Shown here: in pieces, positions 2,472 to 49,967 of the stretch
Layout: each line of letters opens with the position of its first letter
How positions within the stretch are numbered: position 1 is the first letter of the stretch
Source of the DNA: Acutalibacteraceae bacterium
Lineage (GTDB): Bacteria; Actinomycetota; Coriobacteriia; Coriobacteriales; QAMH01
DNA length: 64,000 nt
Direction of reading: 5' to 3'
Assembly (NCBI GenBank): GCA_963606965.1
Contig: CAVDAL010000051.1
Span: forward strand, 31,487-95,486
Position numbers and translations under genes: made by a program
The notes under the pieces: generated by a model
What the model was told of the DNA's origin: nothing
The model's database searches: none
Seen by the model: only the letters and a program-made list of their open reading frames with translations

Positions 2472-3137
2472 GTGAAGTTTTTTCTCGATACTGCAGACCT
2501 CAAAGAAATTGAGGAGATTGCATCGTGGGGTGCTTTAGCAGGCGTTACCACAAATCCAAGCTTGTATGCAAAAATTGGCGGAAAGCTGGAAGGTTTTCAA
2601 GATCATTTGAAAAAGATTTGCGAATTGTGCGACGGCCCTGTTAGTGGCGAAGTCACAGGCGAATCAAGAGAAGAAATGATTGCTGAAGGACGTGAGCTTG
2701 CTGCTTTGGCTAGCAACATGGTCGTTAAAATTCCAATGACTGTTGAAGGCTTGGCTGCATGTCGTGCTCTTTCAAATGAAGGCATCGACGTTAATATGAC
2801 GCTTATTTTTTCCGTTTCACAAGCTTTGCTTGCTGCTCGTGCTGGTGCACGTTATATCAGTCCTTTTGTTGGTAGATTCGATGATATTGCAGAAGATGGT
2901 TTAAGCCAGCTTGAAGATATTGTTGTTGCAATTCAAAATTATGATTTTGGACATGAAATTGAAATTATTGCTGCTTCAATCAGGTCAGCAAATCATGTTG
3001 CTCAAGCTGCTTTGATGGGCGCTGATATTGCAACAATTCCTTATGCTGCCATGAAAAAGTGTGTTCTTCATCCTTTAACAGATCAAGGTCTTGCAAAGTT
3101 CAAAGCTGACTGGGAGAAAGTTGTATCACATGAGTGA
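2472..3137 (+). CDS. tal: Short-type transaldolase / fructose-6-phosphate aldolase family
   Basis: 221 aa. 'MKFFLDTADLKEI..GVTTNPSL', Schiff-base Lys in 'VVKIP', 'SPFVGR.DD'. GTG start preceded by AAGGAAGGA. Confidence 0.9.
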   Translation: MKFFLDTADLKEIEEIASWGALAGVTTNPSLYAKIGGKLEGFQDHLKKICELCDGPVSGEVTGESREEMIAEGRELAALASNMVVKIPMTVEGLAACRALSNEGIDVNMTLIFSVSQALLAARAGARYISPFVGRFDDIAEDGLSQLEDIVVAIQNYDFGHEIEIIAASIRSANHVAQAALMGADIATIPYAAMKKCVLHPLTDQGLAKFKADWEKVVSHE

Positions 3138-4950
3138 TGAAGCAAGTTCAAATATTGAAGAAGCTTCTGAAGTAAAAGAAGAAGCTGCAAAAAAGCCAGC
3201 TCGCAAGACGGCTGCTAAAAAATCTTCTGCAGAGAAAAAACCTGCTGCAAAAAAGCCAGCAGCTAAGAAGACAGCAACAAAAAAGACTGCTGCAAAAAAG
3301 AAGATAGAAACAGTGGAAGAAGGAACAGCTGAAGAAAAAGCTGTAAATGGTGCAGCTGAAGCTGAAGGGCAAGATAAAGCTCCTGCAAAGAAAACTCCAG
3401 CTAAACGCGGTCGCAAAAAGAAAACTGAGGCAGTTTCAAAAGAAGAAGATTTAGCCAAGGCTGAAGATGCCAAGAAAGAAAAACCAGAAAAGCCTGAAGA
3501 ATCAGAGCAAGAACATGAAGCTTCTTCTGAAGAAGATGCGCCAGATGCTTCAAGTAAAGACAAAGAGCAGGCTGCTGGTGAAGAACAAGAAAGCAGCAAT
3601 GGAGCTCGCCGCCGCATGCGTCGCAGTCGTCGCAGCAATAATAATACAAGGCGCGAGATTGTTCCTTCCGCGACAAGAGATGAACTGGCAAATCTTGCTG
3701 ACGATGAACTTGTTGCAAAAGCTGTGCTTTTAGAAGTTGATCCAACAGAATATGGCGAACGAGATGATCTTGTTTCTGCTGTTTATGATTCATTGCTTCA
3801 AGCTGAAGGCTTTGTCATGGTTGAAGGTATCCTTGACATTTTGCCTGATGGCTATGGTTTCATTCGCACAGGTGGTTACCTTCCAGGGGATCATGATGTT
3901 TATGTTGGAGCAAGCATGGTTCGCCGCAATGGCTTGCGCAAAGGCGACTATATAAACGGACGTGTTCGTCCTCCTCGTGATAACGAAAAATATCCAGCTT
4001 TAAATATGATTGTCTTGCTTAATGGCGAGCCTTTTGAAGGTCCAACTCGCCGCGTTAAGTTTGCAAACCTTACTCCAATTTATCCAGATGAACGCTTGAT
4101 TATGGAACATGGTGCAACTGGGATTACTGCTCGCGCAATAGACTTGGTTGCTCCTATTGGTAAAGGTCAGCGCGGTTTGATTGTGTCTCCGCCAAAAGCT
4201 GGCAAGACAACTGTTTTGAAAGATATTGCAGCTGCTATCAGCGCAAATGACCCAGATGTTCATTTGATGTGCTTGTTGATTGATGAACGTCCTGAAGAAG
4301 TTACAGATATGGAACGCAGCATCGATGGGGAAGTTATTTCTTCAACATTCGACATGCCATGTGAAAATCATATTGCTGTTGCTGAACTTGTTATCGAGCG
4401 CGCAAAACGACTTGTTGAAACAGGACAAGATGTTGTTATTTTGCTTGATTCAATCACGCGTCTTGCTCGTGCTTATAACTTGGGGCAACCTGCTTCTGGC
4501 CGTATTCTTTCTGGTGGTGTTGATTCCACAGCTCTTTATCCACCAAAGCGCTTTTTGGGTGCTGCAAGAAATATTGAAGGCGGCGGCTCATTGACCATTT
4601 TGGGTACTGCTCTTATTGAAACAGGCTCAAAGATGGATGAAGTTATCTTTGAAGAATTTAAAGGCACAGGCAATATGGAACTTAAGCTCGATAGAAGCCT
4701 TGCAGACAGAAGAATATTCCCAGCAATTGACCCAATTGCTTCTGGCACACGCAAAGAAGAGCTTTTGCTTGACCCACAAGAAGCTCCTTTAATTTGGGGC
4801 TTGCGCAGATTGCTTGCTAATATGAATAATCCTGAACGAGCAATGGATATGCTTGTTAAATCATTGAAGCAAACAGATAATAATCGTGAATTTTTGATTA
4901 AATCTGCAAAGAAGGCGCAAAAGAATTCTGCGGTTGCCGAAGCATTTTAA
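3130..4950 (+). CDS. rho: Transcription termination factor Rho with a ~180-aa K/A/E-rich N-terminal extension
   Basis: Core motifs 'ILPDGYGFIR', Walker A 'PPKAGKTT', 'RIFPAID'. ATG 3130 overlaps the tal stop by 8 nt; the ORF-track start at 3091 lies inside tal. Confidence 0.95.
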   Translation: MSDEASSNIEEASEVKEEAAKKPARKTAAKKSSAEKKPAAKKPAAKKTATKKTAAKKKIETVEEGTAEEKAVNGAAEAEGQDKAPAKKTPAKRGRKKKTEAVSKEEDLAKAEDAKKEKPEKPEESEQEHEASSEEDAPDASSKDKEQAAGEEQESSNGARRRMRRSRRSNNNTRREIVPSATRDELANLADDELVAKAVLLEVDPTEYGERDDLVSAVYDSLLQAEGFVMVEGILDILPDGYGFIRTGGYLPGDHDVYVGASMVRRNGLRKGDYINGRVRPPRDNEKYPALNMIVLLNGEPFEGPTRRVKFANLTPIYPDERLIMEHGATGITARAIDLVAPIGKGQRGLIVSPPKAGKTTVLKDIAAAISANDPDVHLMCLLIDERPEEVTDMERSIDGEVISSTFDMPCENHIAVAELVIERAKRLVETGQDVVILLDSITRLARAYNLGQPASGRILSGGVDSTALYPPKRFLGAARNIEGGGSLTILGTALIETGSKMDEVIFEEFKGTGNMELKLDRSLADRRIFPAIDPIASGTRKEELLLDPQEAPLIWGLRRLLANMNNPERAMDMLVKSLKQTDNNREFLIKSAKKAQKNSAVAEAF

Positions 4951-4986: not shown

Positions 4987-5043
4987 ATAGCGGTTTGATT
5001 AGCTGCTTTGGTCGGAAACCAAGGCAAGATTTAAGGAGAATTA

Positions 5044-5496
5044 ATGAAAGCTAATATCCATCCAGACTATGTGGAATGCACTGTTCGCTGCTCATGTGGC
5101 AACACTTTCCAAACTCGTTCCACAAAACCAGAGCTCACAGTTGAACTCTGCAACGAATGCCATCCATTCTTCACTGGTCAACAAAAGTTTGTTGATACAG
5201 GCGGACGTGTACAGCGCTTTGCTGATAAATTTGGTTCAGCTGCTGCACAGCTCAAAGAACAAGAAGCAGCAAAGAAGGCTGCAAAGGCTGCTGCTGCTGA
5301 AGAAGCTGCTGCTAAAAAGGCTGCTGAACGTGAAGCTAAAGCTGCTGCTAAAGCTCAACGTGCTGCTGAATATGCTGAAAAGGCTGCAAAAGCAGAAGCT
5401 GAAGCTGCTGAAAAGGCTGAAGAAGAAGCTCCTGCTGCTGAAGAAGCTCCTGAAGCAGAAGCTGAAGAAGCACAAACAGAGCAAGCCGCTGAATAA
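5044..5496 (+). CDS. rpmE: 50S ribosomal protein L31 (Zn-ribbon type) with an ~85-aa Ala/Glu/Lys C-terminal tail
   Basis: 'MKANIHPDY', 'CSCG' and '[10 protein letters not shown]' Zn motifs. TAAGGAG Shine-Dalgarno (SD). The L31 fold ends near aa 65 of 150. Confidence 0.95.
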
Positions 5497-5524
5497 GCAA
5501 TTAACGCTTTTTATATGTAGCAAG

Positions 5525-5559
5525 AGGCGCTGTCCCGTTTTGGACGGCGCCTTTCTTTT
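5525..5559 (+). terminator. Intrinsic terminator after rpmE
   Basis: 11-bp stem AGGCGCTGTCC/GGACGGCGCCT with a 6-nt loop, followed by TTCTTTT. Confidence 0.75.
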
Positions 5560-5621
5560 AAACTATTGTTGAAAAATAGTAGTCGCTTATTTAAGCGAAA
5601 TCAGACGGAAAGGAATATGCA

Positions 5622-6296
5622 ATGAATGTAGAATTGCTATATCACACTCCAGACCCGCAGCGCGCGGTCGCCACAGCTGCACGCCTTTGTTATGCACCTG
5701 TTGGCGCTTCAGAATTGATGGAAACTCTTTCTGAAGAAAAAATCCAAAAAGTTTTAAAGACAATTTTGACTGGCGGACATTTTTCAACATTAGAACACGC
5801 AAGCTATACATTTGCTATTGAGGGAGTTTCGCGAGCATTGACTCATCAGTTAGTTCGTCACCGCATGGCTTCTTATAATCAGCAATCACAGCGCTATGTC
5901 ACATTTAAGGAAGAACCCGAATTTATTCTTCCTCAATCTGTAGTGGATGCTGGCGCTAAAGAGGAATTTGATAAAGCAGCAACTGCTGCTTTTGAAGCAT
6001 ATGCAAAGCTTGTTGAACTTGGAGTTCCTGCTGAAGATGCACGCTATCTTTTGCCAAATGCTTGCGAAACAAAAATTGTTGTAACAATGAATATGCGTGA
6101 ACTTCATCACTTCTTCAGTGTGCGTTGTTGCAATAGAGCTCAGTGGGAAATTCGTGAACTTGCATGCAAAATGCTTGAACTTGTTCGTCCAACAGCACCT
6201 TATATTTTTAAAACTGCAGGCCCTGGCTGTGCAAAAGGCCATTGCCCAGAAGGCAAGATGAGCTGCGGCGAACCTTGGGAGCATGTCGAACAATAA
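5622..6296 (+). CDS. thyX: Flavin-dependent thymidylate synthase ThyX
   Basis: ThyX signature 'RHRMASYNQQSQRY' (RHR..S....S.R). Confidence 0.95.
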   Translation: MNVELLYHTPDPQRAVATAARLCYAPVGASELMETLSEEKIQKVLKTILTGGHFSTLEHASYTFAIEGVSRALTHQLVRHRMASYNQQSQRYVTFKEEPEFILPQSVVDAGAKEEFDKAATAAFEAYAKLVELGVPAEDARYLLPNACETKIVVTMNMRELHHFFSVRCCNRAQWEIRELACKMLELVRPTAPYIFKTAGPGCAKGHCPEGKMSCGEPWEHVEQ

Positions 6297-7399
6297 TGAG
6301 CGAGTCAAAAAAAGCATTTAATGCAGATACGTCTGCAACCTGCAGGACGCATGTTGGTGGTCAAGCACTTATTGAAGGAATAATGATGCGCGGACGCAAG
6401 AGCTGGGCTGTTGCTGTCCGCGAACCTTCAGGTGAAATTTATACAGAACAGCATGATTTAATCAGCGGTCGCAAGAAGAACTCGTGGCTTTTGTGGCCAA
6501 TTATTCGTGGATGCACCGCTTTTGTCGAATCTTTAGTTTTGGGTTTTAAGGCTTTAAATATTGCTTCTGAACATGCATATGACTGGGACGAAGATGACGA
6601 CGACGTAAAGAAGAATGCTGCAGAAGATGAAATAAAAGATTGCGATCAAGAAGATTATTCAGATGAAAATACGGAATTATCTTCTGAGCAAAAGAGCGAA
6701 AAAACAGCTGATAGCAAAAAAGATGAGGATGAAAAATCTTCTGGTGGCGCTGGCATCGTAATGTTGATTTCTATGATAATTGGCATTGTGCTTGGCGTTG
6801 TAATTTTTGTAGTAGCACCTGCTGCTGTTAGCAATCTTGTTTTGGGCTCAGACCAAATGAATACTGCTGCATGGAATATTTTTGATGGTATTCTGCGCGT
6901 TGTTATTTTCATTGCATATATATGGCTTATTGGCAGAATGAAAGATATAAAGCGCATGTTTTCATATCATGGCGCTGAACATAAAACAATTCACTGTTTT
7001 GAACATGGTCTTGAATTAACACCAAAAAATGCTCAGCAATTTCCAACATTGCATGTGCGCTGCGGTACTGCTTTTTTGATTATGGTAATGATTATTGCCA
7101 TCTTTATTTATACAGTTTTGGGTCATCCAATTAATTCTTTAATTGATTTAACTGGCATTACAGGCGGTCCTTTGCGCTTTTTGCTTGTAATTTTGACGCG
7201 AATTATTTTGCTGCCTATTATCGCTGGCTGTTCTTATGAAGTTACTGTTAAATGGGCTGGTTCTAGGCCTGAAAATAAACTTGTTAGAATAGTATTATGG
7301 CCTGGCATGCAAATGCAAAAATTAACAACGAATCAACCTGACGACGACATGCTTGAATGTGCAATTGTTGCAATGAAGCTAGTTTTGGAGAAGGAATAA
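6296..7399 (+). CDS. DUF1385-family membrane protein (YqhQ-like) with an acidic insertion
   Basis: 'VGGQALIEGIMMRG', 'YHGAEHK', 'HVRCGT'. ATG 6296 shares one base with the thyX stop (TAATG). Confidence 0.8.
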   Translation: MSESKKAFNADTSATCRTHVGGQALIEGIMMRGRKSWAVAVREPSGEIYTEQHDLISGRKKNSWLLWPIIRGCTAFVESLVLGFKALNIASEHAYDWDEDDDDVKKNAAEDEIKDCDQEDYSDENTELSSEQKSEKTADSKKDEDEKSSGGAGIVMLISMIIGIVLGVVIFVVAPAAVSNLVLGSDQMNTAAWNIFDGILRVVIFIAYIWLIGRMKDIKRMFSYHGAEHKTIHCFEHGLELTPKNAQQFPTLHVRCGTAFLIMVMIIAIFIYTVLGHPINSLIDLTGITGGPLRFLLVILTRIILLPIIAGCSYEVTVKWAGSRPENKLVRIVLWPGMQMQKLTTNQPDDDMLECAIVAMKLVLEKE

Positions 7400-7400
7400 T

Positions 7401-7919
7401 TTGGATTCTCCTAATCATATATTCATTATTGGATTCATGGGGGCGGGCAAGACAAGTGTTGCTCGCCGCCTTGCAATGATTACTAGTCTATCTTTAATAG
7501 ACCTTGATCAACGCATTCGAATCTTGCAGCACAGATCTGTAACTGACATATTTCGCCTTCAAGGCGAGCAGGCTTTTCGTGAAGCAGAAACTCATGCTTT
7601 AAAAACTCTTTCCTTCGAACCAAGATCTTTTGTTTCTTGCGGAGGGGGAATAATTGAAACACGCGAAAATTGGGATTTAATGCATGAAAGCGGCACAGTC
7701 TTATATTTAGATGTTGACTTTGATGAAGCTGTTGGAAGGATTTCACATCCAAAGACGCGACCTCTTCTTGCAGATTTAGATAATGCACGTGAAATTTATA
7801 ATAAGCGCAGGCCTTTATATTCAGATTGTGCAGATATAACTGTTAAGACAAAGGGCTCAAGTGTGATAAATATTGCCCAAGAATGTAAAAAAGTGCTTAT
7901 AGAAAGAGAGATTTTATGA
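7401..7919 (+). CDS. aroK: Shikimate kinase
   Basis: P-loop 'GFMGAGKTS', 'DLD', 'GE..FR..E', 'GGG', 'RPLL'. TTG start 5 nt after GGAGAAGGA. Confidence 0.85.
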   Translation: MDSPNHIFIIGFMGAGKTSVARRLAMITSLSLIDLDQRIRILQHRSVTDIFRLQGEQAFREAETHALKTLSFEPRSFVSCGGGIIETRENWDLMHESGTVLYLDVDFDEAVGRISHPKTRPLLADLDNAREIYNKRRPLYSDCADITVKTKGSSVINIAQECKKVLIEREIL

Positions 7920-9037
7920 GTTCTTATAAAGTTGTTCATTTAGCATTTCCTGATAAGGATGCAGAAGTTCACATCGGCAAAGGAGTTCTTGCAGATATTG
8001 CAAGTATGTCAAAGGATAGATTTGTTGGAACAAAGGTCCTTTTTGTTTCTGATGAAACATGCGGTCCTGTATATGGTGAGCTTTCTAAAAAGCGATTTGA
8101 AGAATTGGAATATCAAGTTTTTGAGATTCAATTTAAAGCTAATGAAGATATAAAAACGCTTGATAATATTAAAGAGATTTGGGAAAAACTAAAGTTTGAA
8201 CACTTCAGCAGGGAAGATATTATAGTTGCAATAGGTGGGTCAACAATTTTAGAGCTTGTTGGTTTTGCTGCATCAACTTATATGCATGGAATGCGTTATA
8301 TTCAAGTTCCAACAACATTAATGTCAATGGCTGATACATGTGTTGGTGGCAAGAGCAATATAGAATTTTCAAATAAACAGAATGTTCTTGGAACTTTTTA
8401 TCAGGCAGACCTTGTATGCTGCGACACTCGTTGTTTGCATACTTGCAATGATGAAGAATGGCAAAATGGTTTTGCTTCTTTAGTGCGTTGTGCTATAGTT
8501 GCTCCGCGCCGCAGTTTTTATGAATGGCTGCGTTCTCATGCGTCAAGCTTGCAAAACAAGGACGATTTCACATTGCGTGATGCAATTTATATGTCCCTTG
8601 ATTGCAAAGCGGATCTTGTGATGAAAGACTTTTCTGATACAACTGATGTTCAGGCTTGTTTCAAGATGGGAGACAGCTTTGCATCTGCACTGTTAAGCAC
8701 AGATGCCGCTAAAGACTTGTCTTGCGGTCTTGCTTTGGCTGAAGCTTTGCGTTTTTCCTCGAAACTTGCTGTTGAAGTTTTGGGGACGCCAATAGATTTC
8801 ATAACAAGATTAGAAGAGTTGCTTACGCTTTTTGATCTTAAGGAACAGGGTTTTTCTAGCACACCAGAAAATATTTTTTATGCACTGACATCTCAAGAAA
8901 ATTCAAGCGTAGAATCATTCCAGTTTATTCTGCCAAGAGACTTTAATGAATGGGATTGCGTTAAAGTTTCAGATGAACTTGTTTATGAGCATGTCGATGC
9001 TTGGTGTACATATAAAGAGCAACTGCTAAATCAGTAA
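7916..9037 (+). CDS. 3-dehydroquinate synthase homologue with substituted metal and catalytic residues
   Basis: DHQS-like 'GGS..E..GFAAS' and 'VPTTLMSMADTCVGGK'. The expected E/H/H/H positions read S188/D253/S257/C270 (see finding). Confidence 0.7.
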   Translation: MSSYKVVHLAFPDKDAEVHIGKGVLADIASMSKDRFVGTKVLFVSDETCGPVYGELSKKRFEELEYQVFEIQFKANEDIKTLDNIKEIWEKLKFEHFSREDIIVAIGGSTILELVGFAASTYMHGMRYIQVPTTLMSMADTCVGGKSNIEFSNKQNVLGTFYQADLVCCDTRCLHTCNDEEWQNGFASLVRCAIVAPRRSFYEWLRSHASSLQNKDDFTLRDAIYMSLDCKADLVMKDFSDTTDVQACFKMGDSFASALLSTDAAKDLSCGLALAEALRFSSKLAVEVLGTPIDFITRLEELLTLFDLKEQGFSSTPENIFYALTSQENSSVESFQFILPRDFNEWDCVKVSDELVYEHVDAWCTYKEQLLNQ

Positions 9038-9080
9038 ATGATGACAATTATGCATAATTTTGAAAGAAGGCAATAAGCAA

Positions 9081-10184
9081 ATGAAAGCACTATCAAGAAT
9101 AGAAAGACTTCGAAACTTGATGGATGAAGAAAATTTAGATGCAATAGTAGTTAGTGCTATAACAGATTTGATGTGGCTTACTGGCTTTGAATATGTTTTT
9201 GATTCTGAACAGGCACATGTTGCATTTATTACAAAAGACGAATGTGTTATTCATACAGATTGCAGATATTCAACAGCAATGAAAAATGCCGCTAAAAGTG
9301 AAGGACTTTGGATTGTTGATGATAAATATGAAAATCATAGTGAATTTATTGGAAGATTGGCAGATAAAAGATCATTAAGTGCATGTAATATTGCAATTGA
9401 TAAAATGACACCTCTTGTATTTTATAAAGCATTAAAAAAGCGCTTGCCGGATGCACAATTCATTGAGCGCGAAAATGACATTTTTAAATTGCGCGAACAA
9501 AAAGATTTAGCAGAAATTGAAAATATTAAGCTTGCACAAGCTTGTGCAGAAGCAGGTTTTAAAGAAATGCTTTCGGAAATTCATGAAGGTATGACTGAGC
9601 GAGAAGTATCATTAATTTTGGAATTTGCGATGCGCAAAAACGGGGCAGATGAATTATCATTTCCTAATATTGTTGCGTCTGGTCCAAATAGTGCAAACCC
9701 GCATGCTATACCAAGCAATAGAAAGTTAAAGAGCGGGGATCTTGTCGTTTTTGATTTTGGTGCGCGCATAAATGGCTATTGTTCTGATACAACAAGGACA
9801 ATTTCAATTGGCAAGCCAAGTGAAGAACAAAAGCGAATTTATAATGCTGTACGCCTTGCAAATGAAGAAGTTGAAAAATCTTTGCATGCTGGTGTCACAG
9901 GCAAACAAATGCATATACTTGCCGAAGAAGTCTTGCAAGATGCAGGCTTTGGGGGAAAAATGGGACATGCGCTTGGTCATGGTGTAGGTTTGAATGTTCA
10001 TGAAAACCCAACACTTTCGCCTAAAGCAGAGGCTGCTTTGAGAGAAGGCTCAATCGTGACAGTTGAACCAGGTGTTTATATCAGTGGGGAAAATGGTGTA
10101 AGATTAGAAGACTTCGGCTGTGTTAAAGCATCGTCTTTCGATAATTTCTGCAAGTTGCCTCACGATATGTATATTCTAGAGTAA
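9081..10184 (+). CDS. pepP: Xaa-Pro aminopeptidase/dipeptidase (M24B)
   Basis: Pita-bread fold metal ligands in 'DFGA..NGYCSD.TRT', 'HALGHGVGL.VHE', 'VTVEPG'. ATG 9081 sits behind AAGAAGG. Confidence 0.85.
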   Translation: MKALSRIERLRNLMDEENLDAIVVSAITDLMWLTGFEYVFDSEQAHVAFITKDECVIHTDCRYSTAMKNAAKSEGLWIVDDKYENHSEFIGRLADKRSLSACNIAIDKMTPLVFYKALKKRLPDAQFIERENDIFKLREQKDLAEIENIKLAQACAEAGFKEMLSEIHEGMTEREVSLILEFAMRKNGADELSFPNIVASGPNSANPHAIPSNRKLKSGDLVVFDFGARINGYCSDTTRTISIGKPSEEQKRIYNAVRLANEEVEKSLHAGVTGKQMHILAEEVLQDAGFGGKMGHALGHGVGLNVHENPTLSPKAEAALREGSIVTVEPGVYISGENGVRLEDFGCVKASSFDNFCKLPHDMYILE

Positions 10185-10217
10185 AATGAACTGTTAAAAA
10201 TAAAGAAAGGAAAGAAA

Positions 10218-10778
10218 GTGACTGTTCAACCATCTAATTTCAGAAATGGAATGTGCATTAAGTACAACAACAAACTTTGCACAATTGTAGAATTTCAACA
10301 TGTAAAGCCTGGTAAAGGCGGTGCCTTTGTTCGCACAAAACTGAAAGATATTACAACTGGTCGTGTTGTTGATTATACATTCCGCCCAACAGAAAAGTTT
10401 GACGATGTTCGTCTTGAATCAAAAGATATTACATATTCATGGACTGATGGTGAAATTTATTATTTCATGGATCCAGAAACATATGAAATGCTTGAAATTC
10501 CAGCTGACACAATTGGCGATGCTGCAAAATGGATTAAGGAAGATTTTTCTTGCAAAGCAATGTATGCAGACGGCAAATTGATTAGCGTTGAGCCTCCTAT
10601 GTTTGTAGAACTTGAGGTTAGCAATACAGAGCCTGGTTTCAAAGGCAATACTGTTCAGTCTGGCACAAAGCCTGCAACTCTTGAAACAGGAGCAGAGGTT
10701 AAGGTTCCATTGTTTATTGAGATTGGCGATAAAGTTAAAATCGACTCAAGAGATGGTCGTTTTGTAGAACGCGTTTAA
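10218..10778 (+). CDS. efp: Elongation factor P
   Basis: 'VEFQHVKPGKGGAFVRTKLK' loop, 186 aa, GTG start after AAAGGAAAG. Confidence 0.95.
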   Translation: MTVQPSNFRNGMCIKYNNKLCTIVEFQHVKPGKGGAFVRTKLKDITTGRVVDYTFRPTEKFDDVRLESKDITYSWTDGEIYYFMDPETYEMLEIPADTIGDAAKWIKEDFSCKAMYADGKLISVEPPMFVELEVSNTEPGFKGNTVQSGTKPATLETGAEVKVPLFIEIGDKVKIDSRDGRFVERV

Positions 10779-11507
<729 letters not shown>

Positions 11508-11520
11508 TAAAGGAGGAAGC

Positions 11521-12078
11521 ATGTCTGAATTCACTGATAAAGCTAAAGAGAATATGGAAAAGACATTGACGTCATTGTCAGGTTCTTTTGCGAACTTGCG
11601 CACAGGTCGTGCTTCTGCTTCCATGCTTGACGGAATTACTGTCGATTATTATGGAGCAGCAACTCCTATTACTCAAATTACTGCTGTAAAGACTCCTGAA
11701 GCATCACTTCTTACTGTTGAGCCATGGGATAAAAGTATTGTCAATGCTGTAGAAAAAGCAATTCTTGCTTCAAACCTTGGCGTTACTCCAAATAATGATG
11801 GCAGCGGCATTATTCGATTGCCTTTCCCAGCTCCTACTGAAGAACGCCGTAAAGAAATTGTTAAAGAGTGCAAGCAGGTTGCAGAAAATGCACGCATTGC
11901 TATTCGCAATGTTCGCCGTGATATTAAAAATTCTATGGAAAAAGCGCAAAAAGATGGCGAAATGAGCGAAGACGAACTTAAGCGCGCAGAAGACGAACTT
12001 CAAAAAGTTACTGATACTTATATCAAAAAAGTAGATTCAGCTTTGGCTGATAAAGAAAAAGAAGTGATGGAGATTTAA
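11521..12078 (+). CDS. frr: Ribosome recycling factor
   Basis: 'LRTGRAS..ML..I.VDYYG', 'R.A.RN.RRD', 185 aa, strong AAAGGAGG SD. Confidence 0.95.
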   Translation: MSEFTDKAKENMEKTLTSLSGSFANLRTGRASASMLDGITVDYYGAATPITQITAVKTPEASLLTVEPWDKSIVNAVEKAILASNLGVTPNNDGSGIIRLPFPAPTEERRKEIVKECKQVAENARIAIRNVRRDIKNSMEKAQKDGEMSEDELKRAEDELQKVTDTYIKKVDSALADKEKEVMEI

Positions 12079-12855
12079 GTGGATTTATCTGCTTCAACAA
12101 TTCAGAAAATCTTTCCACAACTTCCAGATGATATAAATATAAGCGAGCTTGATTTAAATAATGTGCCAAAAAGCGTTGCCATAATAATGGATGGTAATGG
12201 CAGATGGGCACAAGCTCGTGGCCTGAAAAGAGGGGAAGGGCACAAAGCAGGCATTGGCGCTGTGCGAGAAGCTATTCGCACATGCAATGACCTTGGCGTG
12301 CGTTTTTTAACTATCTATTCATTTTCTTCTGAAAATTGGAAGCGCCCAAAAGAAGAAGTTAGCGGCTTGATGGATTTATTTGCTAAAACAATGGATGCAG
12401 AAATTTCAGGCTTAATGGCTGAAGATGTTCGTATTCGTCTTCTTGGGCGCATTGAAGATTTGCCTCTGGTCACACGTACTGTATTTTCAAAAGCGCAAAA
12501 AAGGTCAGCAAATAATAGTGGCATGACTTTAGCAATTGCTGTAAATTATGGTGCTCGTCAAGAAATTTGTGACGCTGCTCGTTCAATTTTTAAAGAAATT
12601 GAAAGCGGCAAAATTAAACCTGATGACATTGATGAAGAATTGTTTTCTTCTTATTTATATGCTCCTGATGTTTCAGATCCAGATTTAGTGATTCGAACAA
12701 GCGGTGAAATGCGCATATCAAACTTCCTGCTTTGGCAATCTGCTTATTCTGAATTTTATGTCTCTGATGTTTTGTGGCCAGATTTTGATAGATATGAATT
12801 GTTGCGAGCGATATTGTCATATCAAAAACGAGTCAGAAGGTTTGGAAGCGTATAA
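12079..12855 (+). CDS. uppS: Undecaprenyl (isoprenyl) diphosphate synthase
   Basis: 'IIMDGNGRWA', 'IRTSGE.R.SNFLLWQ..Y.E'. GTG immediately follows the frr stop. Confidence 0.9.
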   Translation: MDLSASTIQKIFPQLPDDINISELDLNNVPKSVAIIMDGNGRWAQARGLKRGEGHKAGIGAVREAIRTCNDLGVRFLTIYSFSSENWKRPKEEVSGLMDLFAKTMDAEISGLMAEDVRIRLLGRIEDLPLVTRTVFSKAQKRSANNSGMTLAIAVNYGARQEICDAARSIFKEIESGKIKPDDIDEELFSSYLYAPDVSDPDLVIRTSGEMRISNFLLWQSAYSEFYVSDVLWPDFDRYELLRAILSYQKRVRRFGSV

Positions 12856-12858
12856 GTT

Positions 12859-13719
12859 ATGGCTCTTGACAGCAAAGTCTTTTTAAAGCGTACGTGTGCT
12901 GGCGCTGTTTATATTATTTTAACTGGCGGTTTGACACTGTTAAGTTATTACACATGCGTCCTTGTTATTGCTGCTACTTCAGTTATATGTTGCTATGAAT
13001 TTTTAAAAATGAGCAAAGCAAAAGAACATAAGCCATATACAGTAATTTCTTGCATTTTTGCTTGTTTGATTCCGCTCAGTTTTCTTCTTAGCATGAGTGT
13101 TACAAGTCATATTTTGCTTGCATTCAGCATTGCTTTAATTGGTGGAATCGTTATAGCTTTAGCTTATTTTAAAAAAATTGAAGATACTATTGAAGACCTT
13201 TGCATTTCAATTTTTGCATTTCTATACACAGGCCTGATGCTATCATTTTTAATTTTATTGCGCGATACACTGCCAGGTTTTGAAGGCGGCTTAATAGTTG
13301 TCTTTTTCTTGTTAAGCATTTGGATGACAGATGCTTTTGCATATGTTGGGGGCAGCGCTTGGGGCAAGCATAAATTTTGTCCAAGCATTTCCCCTAAAAA
13401 ATCATGGGAAGGCGTTTTATTCGGCTACATTGGCAGCATAATTTTTTGGTTATTGATTCCGCTTTTTATTCCAGAGTGTGGCTTTGGATATATTTGGGCG
13501 ATAATTTGTGCAATCATTTGTGCTACTGCAGGAATTATTGGCGACTTGTTTGAATCGCATATTAAGCGCGGTTTTGGTGTTAAAGATTCTGGGAATATTA
13601 TGCCAGGACATGGCGGGCTACTGGATAGGAGTGACTCACTTTTGAGTTCTTCAATTTTTGCATATTTGCTTGTTTTAGCTGCGCCTTATGTAACAGCTTT
13701 TATTGGATTTGCATTATGA
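12859..13719 (+). CDS. cdsA: Phosphatidate cytidylyltransferase
   Basis: Polytopic membrane protein with the CTP_transf_1 signature 'SHIKRGFGVKDSGNIMPGHGGLLDRSDS'. Confidence 0.9.
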   Translation: MALDSKVFLKRTCAGAVYIILTGGLTLLSYYTCVLVIAATSVICCYEFLKMSKAKEHKPYTVISCIFACLIPLSFLLSMSVTSHILLAFSIALIGGIVIALAYFKKIEDTIEDLCISIFAFLYTGLMLSFLILLRDTLPGFEGGLIVVFFLLSIWMTDAFAYVGGSAWGKHKFCPSISPKKSWEGVLFGYIGSIIFWLLIPLFIPECGFGYIWAIICAIICATAGIIGDLFESHIKRGFGVKDSGNIMPGHGGLLDRSDSLLSSSIFAYLLVLAAPYVTAFIGFAL

Positions 13720-14867
13720 AAAAATTAAATTTAGTTTTGCTTGGAGCAACAGGCTCTATTGGCACACAAACTTTAGATGTTGTGCGCATGCACAAAGATG
13801 TTATTCAAATTGTTGCTCTAGCTGCTGGTAGCCGCGTTGAAGAACTTGTATCTTATGCACAAGAATTTAATGTTAAACATATTGCATTAGGTAATGAAGA
13901 TTGCAAAAATTCCAATGCTTTAAATTCTTTGGATGAAAGTGTTGAATGTAGCTTTGGCTTAGATGCTGTTACAGATCTTGTTCATCTTGAAAATGCTGAT
14001 ATTGTCTTAAATGCTCTTTCAGGGGCGGCAGGCTTGCGAGCTAGTTATGAAACTCTAAAAAGCGGCAAAATTTTAGCGCTTGCAAATAAAGAATCTCTTG
14101 TTGTTGGCGGCGACTTAATTATGCCTCTTGCAACTCATGAAACACTGCTCCCAGTAGACTCAGAACATTCAGCAATTTATCAATGTTATCTTGGCGAATA
14201 TGCAAAAGAAGCAAGAAAGATTTGGCTTACAGCTTCTGGTGGTCCTTTCCGCGGGTTTAGTCGCACGCAGCTTTCTGAAGTTACATCAAAGCAGGCGCTT
14301 GCTCATCCAACATGGAATATGGGGCCAAAAATTACAATAGATTCTGCTAGCCTTATGAATAAAGGTCTTGAAGTTTTAGAGGCCCACCATTTATTCGATG
14401 TTGCAATAGATGATATTCGTGTTGTTGTTCATCCACAATCATGTGTTCATTCTATGGTCGAATATGTTGATGGATCTGTAAAAGCTCACCTTGGCGTTGC
14501 TGATATGCGGATTCCTATTCAATTTGCTTTAAGCTATCCACACAGGTGGGAAAGTCCAGCAGCAGAAATTGATTTCACAAAGCTTCATTCTTTAGAATTC
14601 TTTGATCCAGATTATGAAACTTTTCGCTGCTTAAGCTTGGCACTAGATGCTGGCAGGGAAGGTGGTACTCTTCCATGTGTAATGAATGCTGCCAATGAAG
14701 TCGCAGTTGCGACATTCTTGAAAGATGCTTGCAGCTTGACAGACATAGACATCTGTGTTGAAAAATGCATGAATCATTTTGGCTCACAAAAAGTAGAGAG
14801 CATTGATCAACTTGTTGAAGTTGATGCTCTTGCAAGATCTTATGCAAGGAACTGTTTAAACGCATGA
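13716..14867 (+). CDS. dxr: 1-deoxy-D-xylulose-5-phosphate reductoisomerase
   Basis: 'LGATGSIG', 'LANKESLV', 'PVDSEHSA', 'HPTWNMG.KITIDSA.L.NKGLE'. Confidence 0.95.
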   Translation: MKKLNLVLLGATGSIGTQTLDVVRMHKDVIQIVALAAGSRVEELVSYAQEFNVKHIALGNEDCKNSNALNSLDESVECSFGLDAVTDLVHLENADIVLNALSGAAGLRASYETLKSGKILALANKESLVVGGDLIMPLATHETLLPVDSEHSAIYQCYLGEYAKEARKIWLTASGGPFRGFSRTQLSEVTSKQALAHPTWNMGPKITIDSASLMNKGLEVLEAHHLFDVAIDDIRVVVHPQSCVHSMVEYVDGSVKAHLGVADMRIPIQFALSYPHRWESPAAEIDFTKLHSLEFFDPDYETFRCLSLALDAGREGGTLPCVMNAANEVAVATFLKDACSLTDIDICVEKCMNHFGSQKVESIDQLVEVDALARSYARNCLNA

Positions 14868-16141
14868 ATGCTCTTTTAACAATTTTTTGGGGAATAGTTG
14901 TTCTTTTAGTGCTCGTATTTATTCATGAGCTTGGACATTTTATTGCTGCAAGATGTTTTAAAGTCCGCGTTACAGAATTCATGATTGGAATGCCAGGGCC
15001 TAATATTAGTTTTGAGCATAATGGCTGCAGATATGGCATCACTTGCATTCCATTGGGTGGATATAATCGCATTACCGGTATGGAAGGCGGTATCGAAAAC
15101 CCCAATTTAAGCAAAGTTTTGGAATATGTTTATAAACAAGGGAAGGTAGATACTGAACATACAGCTTTAGCCTGTGGCTTAAGTGAAGAAGATGCATTGG
15201 AAGCTTTAATCATTTTGGATGGTTGGGGCAGCATCAAAAAAGAAAAGCAAAAAAGCTCGCAAGACATTTATCTTGCTCCAAAAACACAAGAATTTGAACT
15301 GGGACAAGCTCGCATTGTTGAAGATTCAAAAGCACTACTTGATTCTGAACGAAAACAAACTTATAGAGGTTTAAATTTTTGGCGCAGGCTTGTTGTTCTT
15401 TTTGCTGGACCGCTAACTAATATCATTGCTGCTCTTTTAATTTTTGTGATTTTATTTTCTTGTATCGGCATTACATATGCAACAAATACAGTTGATTATG
15501 TTACAGATGGAAGCCCAGCTGCTCAATATTTGCAACACGGCGATGTAATCACAAAAGCAAACGGGCAAGAAATTTCTTCTTCACAAGATTTAGCAACTGT
15601 TCTTTCTTCATTAAAAGAAGACGAAGATGTCACTTTGACTGTGCAGCGCAATGGTGAAGAAAAACAATTCACAATGACTCCAAAAAAGGATGAAAATGGC
15701 TCGTACAAGCTTGGCTTTTATGCAATGGCTGATAAATATAAATTAAGTGTTGGGCAGTCTATTAAAGTTTCTTGGACGCTAACAGTTGAAACTGTAAAAT
15801 CATATGCTCAGCTTTTCAATCCTTTAACAATGGCTGATACAGTATCTGAATCAAGTTCTGTAGTTGGCATATCTGTCATGGCAAAACAAGCAGCAGACGC
15901 TGGCGCATTTAATCTCTTTTACTTACTTGCTGTTATTTCGCTTTCATTAGGAGTTGTAAATTTAGTTCCTGTTCCGCCTTTGGATGGTGGAAGAATTCTT
16001 ATTGAAGTTATTCAAGTCATAGCAAGACGTGAAATTTCCGCAAAAGTTGTTAATGCAATTTCATATATCGTCATAATTTTACTTTTGCTTTTATTTGTTG
16101 TTTTATTGCGGCAAGATATTATTAATTTCATTTTAAAATAA
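14864..16141 (+). CDS. rseP: Site-2 (M50) zinc metalloprotease, RseP-like
   Basis: 'HELGHF', an internal PDZ-like segment, 'NLVPVPPLDGG'. Confidence 0.9.
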   Translation: MNALLTIFWGIVVLLVLVFIHELGHFIAARCFKVRVTEFMIGMPGPNISFEHNGCRYGITCIPLGGYNRITGMEGGIENPNLSKVLEYVYKQGKVDTEHTALACGLSEEDALEALIILDGWGSIKKEKQKSSQDIYLAPKTQEFELGQARIVEDSKALLDSERKQTYRGLNFWRRLVVLFAGPLTNIIAALLIFVILFSCIGITYATNTVDYVTDGSPAAQYLQHGDVITKANGQEISSSQDLATVLSSLKEDEDVTLTVQRNGEEKQFTMTPKKDENGSYKLGFYAMADKYKLSVGQSIKVSWTLTVETVKSYAQLFNPLTMADTVSESSSVVGISVMAKQAADAGAFNLFYLLAVISLSLGVVNLVPVPPLDGGRILIEVIQVIARREISAKVVNAISYIVIILLLLLFVVLLRQDIINFILK

Positions 16142-43988: not shown

Positions 43989-45626
43989 ATGTCTTTAGTT
44001 GATTTTTTACGAAATAATGCAAAAGAACATGGCAATGAAATTGCATTAGTAGAGATTAATCCAGAAATCCAAGAAGATCGTCATGTTACATGGCGTGATT
44101 ATGATCTTATTCAAACAACTAAAAAAGAAGCTTATCGTCGTGAAATTACATGGAAAGTTTTTGATGAAAAAGCTAATCGCTTTGCAAATTTGCTGATTGA
44201 TCGCGGTGTTAAAAAAGGTGACAAAGTTGCAATTTTATTTATGAATTGTTTGGAATGGCTGCCTGTTTATTTTGGCATTCTGAAGACTGGTGCAATTGTT
44301 GTGCCGCTTAATTATCGCTATACAAGTGAAGAAATTGAATATTGTCTTGATTTAGCTGAAGTTGATGTTTTAATTTTTGGTCCAGAATTTCTTGGCCGTG
44401 TTGAAGAAATTGCAACAAGCATCCAAGCTCATAGGCTTTTATATTATTTTGGCAATGACTGCCCAACTTTCGCTGAAAATTATTTAGAAGATACAGCAAA
44501 TTCATCAAGTGCAGACCCGAATATCGAACTTGCAGATGATGATTATGCAGCTATATATTTCAGTAGTGGCACAACAGGCTTTCCAAAGGCTATTTTGCAT
44601 AAGCATTCAAGCTTGGTTCATGCTGCAAAAGCAGAGCAAAATCATCATGGACAAATTCATGATGATACATTTTTATGCATTCCACCTTTGTATCATACAG
44701 GCGCAAAAATGCATTGGTTTGGCAGTCTTATTTCATGTTCAAAAGCTGTCCTTTTGCGCGGCGTTAAACCAAAAACAATTTTTGAAGCGATAAGCAATGA
44801 ACATTGCACAATTGTTTGGCTTCTTGTTCCTTGGGTTCAAGATATTTTGCTAGCAATTGAACAGGGTGACATAAAGCTTGAAGATTATGAACTTGATCAG
44901 TGGAGATTGATGCATATCGGTGCTCAGCCTGTCCCACAAAGTTTGATTCATAAATGGAAGAAGCTCTTCCCACATCATCAATATGATACAAATTATGGTC
45001 TTTCTGAATCTTTAGGGCCTGGATGTGTACATCTTGGTGTTGACAATATAGACCATGTTGGAGCTATTGGTGTTCCAGGCTATGGTTGGCAAGCCAAGAT
45101 TGTAAACGAAGATAATACACTCGTTAAGCAGGGCGAAGTTGGCGAACTTTGTGTAAAAGGTCCAGCTTTGATGATTTGCTATTACAGAAATGAAAAAGCA
45201 ACACAAGAAACTTTGATTGATGGATGGTTGCATACAGGCGACATGGCGAAGCAAGACGACGAAGGTTTTTACTGGCTCGTTGATCGTAAAAAAGATGTTG
45301 TTATTTCTGGTGGAGAAAATATCTATCCTGTTCAGGTCGAGGACTTCTTAAGTGCGAACCCTGCCATCAAAGATGTAGCTGTTATTGGTTTGCCAGATGA
45401 ACGACTTGGTGAAATTGCAGCAGCAATTATTGAGCTTAAACCTGAATATTTAGAAACAACAGAAGAAGACATCAATAAATTCTGTTTGAAACTTCCGCGT
45501 TATAAACGTCCTCGCAAAATTATTTTTGCAGATGTCCCACGCAATCCAACAGGCAAAATTGAAAAGCCTCTTTTGCGTGAACGCTATGGCGCGACAAATA
45601 TCGTAAATCAAGAAAATATAAGTTAA
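43989..45626 (+). CDS. AMP-forming acyl-CoA synthetase/ligase (ANL family), substrate unknown
   Basis: 'YFSSGTTGFPKA', 'YGLSE', 'GWLHTGD', 'VDRKKDV.ISGGENIYP', terminal 'PRN..GKI.K'. Confidence 0.85.
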   Translation: MSLVDFLRNNAKEHGNEIALVEINPEIQEDRHVTWRDYDLIQTTKKEAYRREITWKVFDEKANRFANLLIDRGVKKGDKVAILFMNCLEWLPVYFGILKTGAIVVPLNYRYTSEEIEYCLDLAEVDVLIFGPEFLGRVEEIATSIQAHRLLYYFGNDCPTFAENYLEDTANSSSADPNIELADDDYAAIYFSSGTTGFPKAILHKHSSLVHAAKAEQNHHGQIHDDTFLCIPPLYHTGAKMHWFGSLISCSKAVLLRGVKPKTIFEAISNEHCTIVWLLVPWVQDILLAIEQGDIKLEDYELDQWRLMHIGAQPVPQSLIHKWKKLFPHHQYDTNYGLSESLGPGCVHLGVDNIDHVGAIGVPGYGWQAKIVNEDNTLVKQGEVGELCVKGPALMICYYRNEKATQETLIDGWLHTGDMAKQDDEGFYWLVDRKKDVVISGGENIYPVQVEDFLSANPAIKDVAVIGLPDERLGEIAAAIIELKPEYLETTEEDINKFCLKLPRYKRPRKIIFADVPRNPTGKIEKPLLRERYGATNIVNQENIS

Positions 45627-45636
45627 AGGGGAGTCT

Positions 45637-47415: not shown

Positions 47416-47987
47416 TGACTACTACAATTTTGCTTGTTGGAGTTGGTGGACAAGGCACAATTTTAGCAGGCGATTTGCTTGCTAAAACAGCTGCTAAAAG
47501 CGGATATGATGTAAAAATTTCAGAGATTCATGGAATGTCACAGCGCGGAGGCTCTGTAAGTACAGTCGTCCGTTTTGGCGAGTCTGTATCTTCAATGGTA
47601 GTTGATCCAGGATGTGCAGATATTATTATTTCTTTTGAAGAAATTGAAGCTTTGCGCTATCTGCATTATTTGAAAAAAGACGGCACTTTATTTGTGAATG
47701 CTACACAAATCACACCCGTAAGCGTCCACATTGGGAATTTTGAAATGCCACAGGACGCACATGAACGTCTTGATAAATTAGGTGCGCACTTGTTGGATGC
47801 TCAAGAGCTTGCAAATAGTGTTAATTCTCCAAAATCTGCAAATGTTGTTTTGATGGGTGCACTTTCAACAAAGCTTCCATTTGATGCAGCAGTTTGGCGC
47901 GAAGTAATAAAAGAGCGCGTTCCTCAAAAAACAATTGAAAAGAATTTAGAGGCTTTTGACTGTGGCGTTGCAGCAGCTTCAAAGTAA
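47415..47987 (+). CDS. iorB: Indolepyruvate:ferredoxin oxidoreductase beta subunit
   Basis: 'LLVGVGGQGT', 'EIHGMSQRGGSV'. TAATG junction with iorA. Confidence 0.85.
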   Translation: MTTTILLVGVGGQGTILAGDLLAKTAAKSGYDVKISEIHGMSQRGGSVSTVVRFGESVSSMVVDPGCADIIISFEEIEALRYLHYLKKDGTLFVNATQITPVSVHIGNFEMPQDAHERLDKLGAHLLDAQELANSVNSPKSANVVLMGALSTKLPFDAAVWREVIKERVPQKTIEKNLEAFDCGVAAASK

Positions 47988-49020: not shown

Positions 49021-49967
49021 TCGATAACAATTCAAAATGCGTGCGTTTTGCTCCGTCTCCAAGTGGCAGAATGCACTTTGGCAACATTTATTCCGCTATT
49101 TTATCTTGGCTTATTGCTCGCAAAGAAAATGCAAAATTTATAATCAGGATGGAAGATATTGATGAACGCTCCAAAAATAAGCAATATCAGAATTTAATTT
49201 TAGAAGATTTGTCATGGCTTGGACTTGATTGGGACGAAGAACCAATCATTCAGTCTGCTCGCAGCAACTATTATGAAGAAATCTTTAATGCACTTTCAAC
49301 TCAAGCGCACATTTATCCATGTTTTTGCAAACGTGCAGATTTGCATGCAGCAAGTGCGCCTCATGCAAGCGATGGCACGCCAATATATGCTGGAACTTGC
49401 AAAAATTTATCTGATGCCGATGTGGCAGAAAAATTAAAAACTAGGCAGCCTGCATATCGAATCGAAGTCCCCAATAAGGAAATTTCATTCCATGATGAAA
49501 TTCAAGGGACATACAGTCAAAATCTTGCAGGTGAGTGCGGCGATTTTGTCTTAAAAAGAAGCGATGGCATTTTTGCATACCAACTTTGCGTTGTTGCAGA
49601 TGATATTGCTCAAGGTGTAACAGATGTTGTTCGTGGCGCAGATCTTTTATCTTCAACACCAAGACAAATTTATCTATATGAACTTCTTGACAAAAATCAT
49701 CCGCGCTATTTTCATCATCCAGTTTTATTAAGCATGGACGGTAAGCGTCTTTCAAAACGTGATAAATCTTGTGATATGTCTTATCTGCTTAAGAATTTTA
49801 GTCCCCATGATCTGCTTGGTTGGGTTGCATTTTATTTAGGACAAATTGATAGTGCGCAACCTCTCACCCTGCAAGAATTGCTTGATTTATTCACCTTAAA
49901 TAATGTTCCGAATAAGTCTGCTATAATTGCTGACGCGTTTTTAAACGCTACTGCTTTGGGGGTATAG
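49017..49967 (+). CDS. gluQ: Glutamyl-Q tRNA(Asp) synthetase (truncated GluRS paralogue)
   Basis: 'RFAPSPSGRMHFGN' (HIGH-type), Zn motif 'CFC...(n)..Y.GTC', 'RLSKRD'. About 315 aa with no anticodon-binding domain. The stop TAG lies inside the tRNA. Confidence 0.85.
   Translation: MIDNNSKCVRFAPSPSGRMHFGNIYSAILSWLIARKENAKFIIRMEDIDERSKNKQYQNLILEDLSWLGLDWDEEPIIQSARSNYYEEIFNALSTQAHIYPCFCKRADLHAASAPHASDGTPIYAGTCKNLSDADVAEKLKTRQPAYRIEVPNKEISFHDEIQGTYSQNLAGECGDFVLKRSDGIFAYQLCVVADDIAQGVTDVVRGADLLSSTPRQIYLYELLDKNHPRYFHHPVLLSMDGKRLSKRDKSCDMSYLLKNFSPHDLLGWVAFYLGQIDSAQPLTLQELLDLFTLNNVPNKSAIIADAFLNATALGV

Follow-up and report, generated by a model that had tools for sequence, protein, structure and literature searches.

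Organisation of the locus

A 64,000-nucleotide stretch of contig CAVDAL010000051.1 (hereafter 'the window') carries, at positions 7916..9037 of its forward strand, a 373-amino-acid open reading frame (ORF). It encodes an orthologue of 3-dehydroquinate synthase (DHQS), the product of aroB, that is full-length but catalytically degenerate. The host is an uncultured, low-GC, gut-type Coriobacteriia bacterium, with an Rfam L31-Coriobacteria leader at 5005-5038 placing the window in that class. The gene sits within a tightly packed, co-directional array of housekeeping genes, thyX-DUF1385-aroK-aroB-pepQ-efp-pyrH-frr-uppS-cdsA-dxr-rseP (5622..16141, + strand), immediately downstream of the shikimate kinase gene aroK (7401..7919, +), the stop codon of which overlaps the aroB start in the tetranucleotide ATGA (7916..7919, +), an arrangement that points to translational coupling. 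On its other side lies pepQ, encoding an M24 Xaa-Pro peptidase (9081..10184, +), and rho is also found in the window, at 3091-4950. No intergenic terminator-like site emerged from a consensus scan of the + strand from thyX to rseP, and a scan for sigma-70 promoters returned no more sites than did shuffled sequence.

The closest canonical relatives are uncultured Coriobacteriia/Coriobacteriaceae metagenome-assembled genomes (MAGs) from gut and rumen, in which the gene order is thyX-DUF1385-aroC-aroK-aroB-aroQ-pepQ; aroC lies upstream wherever the contig extends far enough, and aroQ downstream in all loci except L020 (621-1736), the sole canonical relative whose aroB has neither aroQ nor pepQ after it, with 4.7 kb of downstream sequence present. 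A set of degenerate loci (the window; L007, an independent assembly with 99.9% nucleotide identity; L010, L001, L008, L009 and L002) instead share the order L31-thyX-DUF1385-aroK-aroB-pepQ-efp-pyrH-frr-uppS-cdsA-dxr-rseP. A first-pass annotation of the window had reported both aroC and aroQ as missing, and the comparison with canonical relatives bears this out, as the degenerate loci have neither gene, nor any remnants. In the window, the slot for aroC is a 1-nucleotide spacer between the DUF1385 stop codon and the TTG start of aroK (7397..7403, +), and that for aroQ the 43-nucleotide spacer between aroB and pepQ (9038..9080, +); neither holds a remnant, and a tblastn search of the whole 64 kb window found none for aroC or aroQ. 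An inventory of Pfam domains across the same 64 kb revealed no further aro, trp, phe or tyr gene. The ancestral aroC-aroK-aroB-aroQ cluster is therefore dismantled. The annotation had also counted nusB among the losses; whilst it is correct that nusB does not sit beside efp in the window, efp is followed by pyrH in the canonical relatives too, so that its absence lies outside this event.

The remaining neighbour, aroK, had been described as intact, and we agree. It matches Pfam SKI (1e-41), aligns to E. coli AroK (1kag), and has all of its catalytic and shikimate-binding motifs (Walker A GFMGAGKT, DLD, GE..FR..E, GGG, TRPLL and RRPLY), the functional roles of which have been documented (PMC7144000). 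Walker A, DxD, GE..FR..E, GGG, (T/S)RPLL and R.PLY are kept in every degenerate lineage, the gene is under purifying selection (omega, the ratio of dN to dS, 0.07-0.12), and the 4-nucleotide ATGA overlap with aroB is preserved in all degenerate lineages as well as in canonical relatives. Like its degenerate neighbour, aroK has diverged from canonical relatives beyond expectation: it is 44-47% identical to them, where pairs of canonical sequences matched for EF-P/PepQ divergence share 56-61%. An intact aroK in this setting suggests either salvage of shikimate or a second role for AroK; a 'second activity' has been proposed for the E. coli protein (Vinella et al. 1996).

An AroB orthologue with a degenerate active site

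The assignment of the ORF to the AroB family, made in the first-pass annotation, is secure. Pfam matches its DHQ_synthase N-domain (PF01761) at 4e-35 and the C-terminal catalytic domain (DHQS_C, PF24621) at only 1e-7, and phmmer aligns the full-length protein to 16 DHQS/sugar phosphate cyclase chains in the PDB, including the solved DHQS structures 3okf, 6lk2 and 3zok. Against the NCBIfam equivalog model TIGR01357 it scores 205 bits, below the cut-off of 305, with other degenerate lineages at 192, 173, 111 and 219 bits and the canonical relative L005 at 350.

A hand alignment had suggested that the metal ligands and the catalytic histidine were replaced, and phmmer alignments to 3okf, 6lk2 and 3zok reproduce it (canonical/window: GMAEVIK/GFASLVR, LNLGHTFGHAIE/FKMGDSFASALL and LHGEAV/SCGLAL); an HMM-profile alignment likewise puts Ser188, Asp253, Ser257, Leu260 and Cys270 in the Glu/His/His/Glu/His columns, and the codon coordinates given for the replaced residues (8477-8731) are correct. 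In an alignment of 60 sequences, columns E188, H253, H257, E260 and H270 are invariant in 57/57 canonical members, and the S, D, S, L and C found in the window are therefore real substitutions, far beyond chance. It is scarcely credible that the protein is a working DHQS, with the substitutions being artefacts of alignment or errors of sequencing/assembly, given that three independent profile/pairwise methods agree and that different samples, assembled independently, yielded the same sequence (L007, with a nucleotide identity of 99.9%, and cluster members P0121-P0126).

The former metal/catalytic site (8477..8731, +), where canonical E, K, R, N, H, H, E and H are invariant in the 57 homologues, now reads S188 (8477-8479), R191, Q246 (8651-8653), K250, D253 (8672-8674), S257 (8684-8686), L260 (8693-8695) and C270 (8723-8725). 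The Glu, His and His that bind the metal (Glu194, His271 and His287 in A. nidulans) are thus replaced by Ser188, Asp253 and Cys270, and the proton-shuttle histidine (the equivalent of His275), along with an adjacent invariant glutamate, by Ser257 and Leu260. DHQS is an obligate metalloenzyme in which His275 takes part in proton shuffling during C5 oxidation (PMC7144000), and mutants in its metal-binding histidines lose activity (PMC9074039).

The damage is wider than had been noticed: canonical DHQS has 79 columns with a conservation of at least 90%, and the window's protein keeps only 42 of them, with R124, K155, K191, R246, N250, T254 and D327-K328-K329 also lost. [quoted passage not shown] The former phosphate-binding D-K-K triplet (amino acids 327-329; 8894..8902, +) has become Q-E-N. 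Two motifs that the first-pass annotation took to persist are themselves degraded: 'KQN' corresponds to canonical G-K-N with the invariant lysine swapped for glutamine, and the NAD-binding glycine-rich loop (amino acids 107-117; 8234..8266, +), canonically GGGVxGDxxGF, reads GGSTILELVGF (G109S, V110T, G112L, D113E), at four positions that canonical DHQS conserves to 95-100% and that no degenerate lineage has kept. The pair E77/K80 is kept in the window and reads I/E and E/G in the sister lineages.

With the metal ligands, the proton-shuttle histidine, most DAHP contacts and the NAD loop gone, the protein should be unable to make dehydroquinate, and DHQS catalysis can be considered lost, in keeping with the original suggestion and with the alignments to solved DHQS and the set of lost conserved columns. 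Assignment as equivalog AroB (EC 4.2.3.4) is contradicted by the sub-threshold score together with the missing metal, substrate and NAD determinants. Other members of the wider superfamily fare no better: another sugar phosphate cyclase was rejected on the loss of the ligand columns, the degraded NAD loop and a TIGR04425 score of 133 against a cut-off of 400, and an iron-containing (group III) alcohol dehydrogenase on sub-threshold matches to Fe-ADH (27.0 bits, cut-off 28) and Fe-ADH_2 (17.8 bits, cut-off 31.3) that cover the N-terminal part only.

Selection on the degenerate gene

Between the window and L010 (94% amino acid identity) aroB shows a dN of 0.032, a dS of 0.328 and an omega of 0.097, rejecting neutrality (Fisher test against omega = 1, p = 9e-25); by part, omega is 0.17 for the N-domain, 0.038 for the C-domain and 0.045 for residues 180-280. 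Its neighbours in the same comparison give 0.074 (aroK), 0.080 (pepQ) and 0.127 (DUF1385), and active, canonical aroB in sister lineages 0.014-0.076 at a dS of 0.26-0.53, so that constraint on the dead gene falls only a little short of that on the live enzyme. The remaining close comparisons carry little information, as L001 (a 4.3x-coverage contig) versus L008 gives an omega of 0.59 from too few substitutions, and the pairs L008/L009, L031/L032 and L033/L034 are nucleotide-identical.

The ORF is also undisrupted by frameshift or stop codon in 6/6 independent contigs; it retains a length of 371-375 amino acids and a near-gapless alignment across lineages that are only 47-58% identical, and the probability that 373 codons form an open frame by chance at 39% GC is about 1e-11. 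A decaying pseudogene is ruled out by the intact ORFs in six contigs and an omega well below 1. At matched housekeeping divergence, canonical AroB proteins share 63-68% identity, whereas the degenerate protein is 36-40% identical to canonical relatives, a pattern that points to a burst of substitutions along the clade's stem and to renewed constraint thereafter. The first-pass annotation had left three possibilities, namely a relic, a pseudoenzyme or an enzyme with a new Ser/Asp/Cys site, and had called for a measurement of dN/dS; for the gene as a whole that measurement (0.097) speaks of purifying selection, favouring a pseudoenzyme over a decaying relic, with the new site failing on the grounds set out below.

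The degenerate clade and the case against a new site

Among 537 homologous proteins (E <= 1e-10), of which the best 120 were checked at the ligand columns, the degenerate state is confined to three clusters: the window's own (P0001 and variants of at least 90% identity), P0002/P0128 (58% identity) and P0003 (47% identity). When 1.84 billion representatives were scanned exhaustively with HMMER, the clade's own representative scored 733 bits and the next protein 307, which shows the clade to be isolated among protein representatives. No member was found in a scan of GTDB representative genomes, where the matches were canonical Coriobacteriia MAGs at 33-44% identity. The loci of the clade (the window, L001, L002 and L007-L010) have a GC content of 38-40%, compared with 54-67% in canonical relatives (L003-L006 and L011-L029); this strong AT shift within one Coriobacteriia lineage coincides with the degenerate-AroB clade, and L035 (37.6% GC) represents a separate low-GC lineage.

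Five substitutions are common to all three lineages (G112L, S142C, E241D, R246Q and L249F), placing inactivation before they split. The ligand positions themselves differ from one lineage to another (188 S/A/S, 253 D/N/L, 257 S/D/R, 260 L/C/Y and 270 C/Y/W), and have therefore kept drifting since. Key functional positions are invariant across the three lineages in only 1/15 cases, as against 136/358 of the other positions (p = 0.013), whilst other canonical-conserved and mostly structural columns are invariant in 33/64. Of the clade-invariant positions, 76 are common to close canonical relatives and 14 are rare in canonical DHQS, these being conservative swaps; comparing the three degenerate lineages with canonical sequences position by position, we found no clade-specific conserved polar residue to have been gained.

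These patterns bear directly on the idea of a new Ser/Asp/Cys site and, more broadly, on a scheme in which the DHQS fold has acquired a metal-independent or differently liganded site for some other sugar phosphate. Retention of the gene under purifying selection would fit such an enzyme, as would certain pocket residues (D140 in 3/3 lineages; K146, N156 and K231 in 2/3). However, D253, S257 and C270, the conservation of which the first-pass annotation had proposed as a check, turn out to vary: the residues now at the ligand columns are not as well conserved as the protein is on average, the NAD loop and the pair E77/K80 have degraded or differ from lineage to lineage, and a conserved polar residue peculiar to the clade was not seen. 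We consider a newly evolved enzyme highly improbable.

Recurrence in other Coriobacteriia lineages

The ligand columns were checked in the 150 best representatives to flag further degraded DHQS homologues. Two of these, P0146 and P0138 (from L030 and L031/L032, respectively; 65% GC), are degraded AroB proteins (L030 8001-9080; L031/L032 8001-9098) scoring 111 and 219 bits against the cut-off of 305, encoded in the order alaS-ruvX-mltG-...-aroC-aroK-aroB-pepQ-efp, without aroQ; the accompanying AroC is intact (403 bits, cut-off 321). Between L030 and L031 the degenerate AroB is the fastest gene, at 38% identity as against 71% for AroC and 88% for EF-P. A further protein, P0152 (L033/L034; 57% GC), is partly degenerate (E188A, H253Q, R246G, N250A and K328N; L033 8001-9104, L034 7292-8395), and lies in the order ruvX-mltG-hydrolase-aroB-pepQ; aroK, aroC and aroQ do not occur within 8 kb. 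In PepQ/EF-P identity the canonical loci L005 and L003 are closer to the window clade than are L030 or L033, making inactivation in the window clade independent of theirs; this shows that dead AroB arose at least twice independently, in the window clade and in L030-L032, and L033/L034 may represent a third origin.

A contrasting case is L035, with the order thyX-DUF1385-aroB-pepQ, in which aroB (3576-4700) keeps every catalytic residue and no aroK, aroC or aroQ is present on the 6.2 kb contig; absence from the cluster is therefore no proof of absence from the genome. The position of pepQ, directly 3' of aroB, is common to every degenerate-AroB lineage and L035.

Three further observations were made on these homologues. 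The AroK of L031 apparently lacks the equivalents of R58 and R136 (GQERFSEME and NRELLPYY), with that of L030 intact. Upstream of aroC in L030, after mltG and a hydrolase gene, a 286-amino-acid ORF (5289-6149) has no family match and only weak, Rossmann-type similarity; it lies roughly at the position of aroE in the classical actinobacterial cluster, as in the M. tuberculosis locus, and is possibly a degenerate shikimate dehydrogenase. Finally, P0142, a multidomain protein of 2653 amino acids, contains a DHQS-like domain (~1178-1511) in which the equivalent of the catalytic His257 is Asn and those of R246/N250 are E/D.

Loci of this kind raise the possibility that the window's aroB is simply a redundant ancestral copy, the pathway being served elsewhere in the genome, either by an aro operon that was relocated or horizontally acquired and includes a DHQS, or by shikimate salvage through aroA/aroC only, such that aroB became dispensable with aroK still in use. 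An aroK that keeps every catalytic and shikimate-binding residue under purifying selection would be explained in this way, and gut bacteria are known to have a shortened pathway of AroK-AroA-AroC for salvaging shikimate (PMC9026213); L030-L032 keep intact aroC and aroK beside a dead aroB, and L035 an intact aroB away from other aro genes. Against this stands the lack of any other aro, trp, phe or tyr gene in the window, and, more fundamentally, redundancy would account for the loss of catalysis but not for selection on a dead protein; as a complete account we think it improbable, although it is compatible with the reading favoured below.

A model for retention of the dead protein

Synthesising these findings, we favour, with moderate confidence, a model in which the window's aroB encodes a catalytically dead, folded pseudoenzyme that is kept for an ancestral non-catalytic role, structural or partner-binding, with AroK as the leading candidate partner. 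Two hallmarks of a pseudoenzyme are in evidence: homology to an enzyme family, with what the alignments indicate to be loss of the residues essential for catalysis, and an intact ORF under purifying selection. We envisage that the gene is the surviving aroB of a shikimate cluster that ran aroC-aroK-aroB-aroQ in an ancestor, that the common ancestor of the three low-GC Coriobacteriia lineages lost DHQS catalysis, and that aroC and aroQ were cleanly excised; the protein would still be made, presumably coupled in translation to the intact aroK, and purifying selection would hold it as a folded, DHQS-shaped protein. What appears to have been kept is the ancestral non-catalytic architecture, and neither the old pocket nor a new one, making a structural or partner-binding role inherited from the ancestral enzyme the most likely; we infer that the selection acting on the gene reflects such a function. 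A hint as to the partner comes from natural AroK-AroB fusions within the class (P0052; NF010627), and from the 4-nucleotide overlap seen in all lineages.

With regard to the fold, an AlphaFold2 (AF2) model built with the 60-sequence alignment is confident (predicted local distance difference test score, pLDDT, 92.1; predicted TM-score, pTM, 0.90), and in Foldseek matches the DHQS structures 3okf/6lla with a TM-score of 0.87-0.92.

Several points weigh against this model. Given only the three degenerate sequences, AF2 returns a pLDDT of 50 (N-domain 70-90, C-domain below 50), meaning that the confident model leans on the canonical homologues; the case for a retained fold is made chiefly by the alignment, which is gapless over the full length, and by the structural columns that stay conserved. 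Only the comparison of the window with L010 is suitably diverged for a clean dN/dS; deeper pairs are saturated in dS, with an omega of 0.19-0.36, and from one lineage to another aroB evolves faster than any other gene of the array (dN 0.33-0.56; 58/47/46% identity). The overlap of aroK and aroB is ancestral, and so provides no specific evidence for a new partnership. An obligate role as a partner of AroK also sits uneasily with the degenerate AroB of L030 versus L031, at a dN/dS of about 0.6, and with L033/L034, which have no nearby aroK and yet have kept a partly degenerate AroB.

The same observations lend some weight to the main competing explanation, in which the protein does nothing and the gene is a functionless relic unable to decay freely, held open by operon polarity and the cost of misfolding. 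Here, a nonsense or frameshift mutation in aroB would bring about Rho-dependent polarity on the essential efp, pyrH, frr, uppS and cdsA, and co-translation with aroK at appreciable levels would cause destabilising substitutions to be purged. Consistent with this are the packed operon, devoid of terminator-like sites from thyX to rseP on the + strand, and the presence of rho; the structural or ancestral nature of the conserved positions, with no new conserved surface residues; the invariable location of degraded AroB directly 5' of pepQ-efp in independent lineages, whether or not aroK is present; and the dN/dS of about 0.6 in L030/L031, together with the rank of aroB as the fastest gene in the array. 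However, the clean excision of aroC and aroQ from this same operon implies that in-frame removal is possible, yet aroB has survived in three deeply diverged lineages, and an omega of 0.097 (0.04 in the C-domain), close to that of active aroB, is stronger than foldability alone predicts. We therefore regard a functionless relic as rather unlikely. Returning to a retained, non-catalytic function, we speculate, tentatively, that Coriobacteriia AroB in general has a second, non-catalytic role, structural or regulatory, with AroK, PepQ or another partner, that outlives catalysis, such that dead DHQS is repeatedly retained in lineages that give up making shikimate de novo.

Comparison with known systems

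Set against bacterial AroB (EC 4.2.3.4; TIGR01357; PDB 3okf, 6lk2/6lla, 5eks and 3qbe), the window's protein is orthologous, aligning over its full length, with a predicted fold of two domains, the N-domain Rossmann-like and the C-domain helical (TM 0.87-0.92 as above), a slot after aroK with the 4-nucleotide overlap, and non-catalytic family motifs such as VAPRRSFYEW in common with canonical Coriobacteriia AroB. It differs in the replacement of its metal ligands, catalytic histidine, most substrate contacts and NAD glycine loop (205 versus 305 bits), in a rate of evolution roughly double that of canonical AroB when species divergence is matched, and in the deletion of its aroC and aroQ neighbours. 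The other sugar phosphate cyclases (EEVS, EVS, DDGS, DOIS and aminoDHQS) have the same fold, with TIGR04425 as only a weak match, and all those characterised keep the three metal-ligand positions (PMC4426668). AroK-AroB fusions (NF010627/NF010556; for example, Coriobacteriia P0052) link the two proteins physically, where the window's genes would be linked by translational coupling; the latter encode separate polypeptides, with the AroB part dead.

Pseudoenzymes in general are well known. A parallel is offered by Candida albicans Aro1, in which an inactive type I dehydroquinase (DHQase) domain is kept folded and mediates homodimerisation (PMC9074039); as in our case, a module of the shikimate pathway has been inactivated by active-site substitutions and nonetheless retained. 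Aro1, though, is a eukaryotic pentafunctional protein whose inactivity at that step, covered by Dqd1, was shown experimentally (PMC9074039), whereas the window encodes a free-standing bacterial protein at a different step, the inactivity of which we deduce from its sequence. Partial shikimate pathways are well known in host-associated bacteria (PMC3018139, PMC9026213), including a truncated 'As' variant of the chorismate pathway, with AroK-AroA-AroC only and salvage of shikimate, in gut Lactobacillus/Anaerotruncus (PMC9026213). The window's host resembles the latter as a gut-associated bacterium with an intact shikimate kinase and upstream steps lost, and L030-L032, with aroC, aroK and a dead aroB but no aroQ, do so too; the window's cluster, however, also lacks aroC, and the published variant has no retained dead AroB. 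Literature searches on dehydroquinate synthase as a pseudoenzyme or catalytically inactive protein found no description of a dead DHQS, and one on shikimate auxotrophy in Coriobacteriia found nothing.

Other features of the window

Further along the window, the gene for an AMP-forming acyl-CoA ligase (43989-45626) precedes a pair resembling indolepyruvate:ferredoxin oxidoreductase (45637-47415, TPP_enzyme_C/POR_N/Fer4; 47388-47987, POR). These genes (43989-47987) could serve to ferment aromatic amino acids, or to regenerate such amino acids from aryl acids by reductive carboxylation; the latter, if true, would be relevant to an organism with a dismantled shikimate cluster. At 49017-50033, a truncated class-I Glu/Gln tRNA-synthetase-like protein (316 amino acids, GluQ-RS-like) is encoded, the end of its ORF (49967) overlapping the start of a tRNA-Ala(GGC) gene (49958-50033).

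Within and around the array, L31 (5005-5496, with its leader upstream) encodes 150 amino acids with an Ala/Glu/Lys-rich C-terminal extension of ~80 residues, and has a similar tail in L035 (868-1356). DUF1385 (6296-7399) contains an acidic, low-complexity insertion of ~70 residues at ~6600-6780 (DWDEDDDDVKKNAAEDEIKD...KDEDEKSSGG), evident against the Pfam model as 299 residues matched to 226 profile positions. In L001 (3971-5094), pepQ appears as two overlapping ORFs (124 and 265 amino acids) on the 4.3x-coverage contig and is intact in the near-identical L008; rather than marking a pseudogene, the split probably stems from an error of assembly.

Implications

Annotation pipelines would still call this protein an enzyme, and one source already names P0121 '3-dehydroquinate synthase'; genome-scale metabolic reconstructions that accept it as a working AroB would mis-score these gut bacteria for aromatic amino acid prototrophy or for sensitivity to glyphosate. 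For the study of enzyme evolution, the locus provides a clean and datable natural case of what becomes of an enzyme in a dismantled pathway, its catalytic, substrate and cofactor sites decaying and its fold remaining under constraint near that of a working enzyme, and the outcome, a dead AroB that is retained, apparently recurs in Coriobacteriia. If the proposed non-catalytic role is real, it would imply a moonlighting activity of AroB that has gone unknown, and possibly one of the orphan-looking AroK as well; and, should a second function of AroB prove to be general, these proteins would constitute a previously unrecognised family of bacterial pseudoenzymes derived from a core biosynthetic enzyme.

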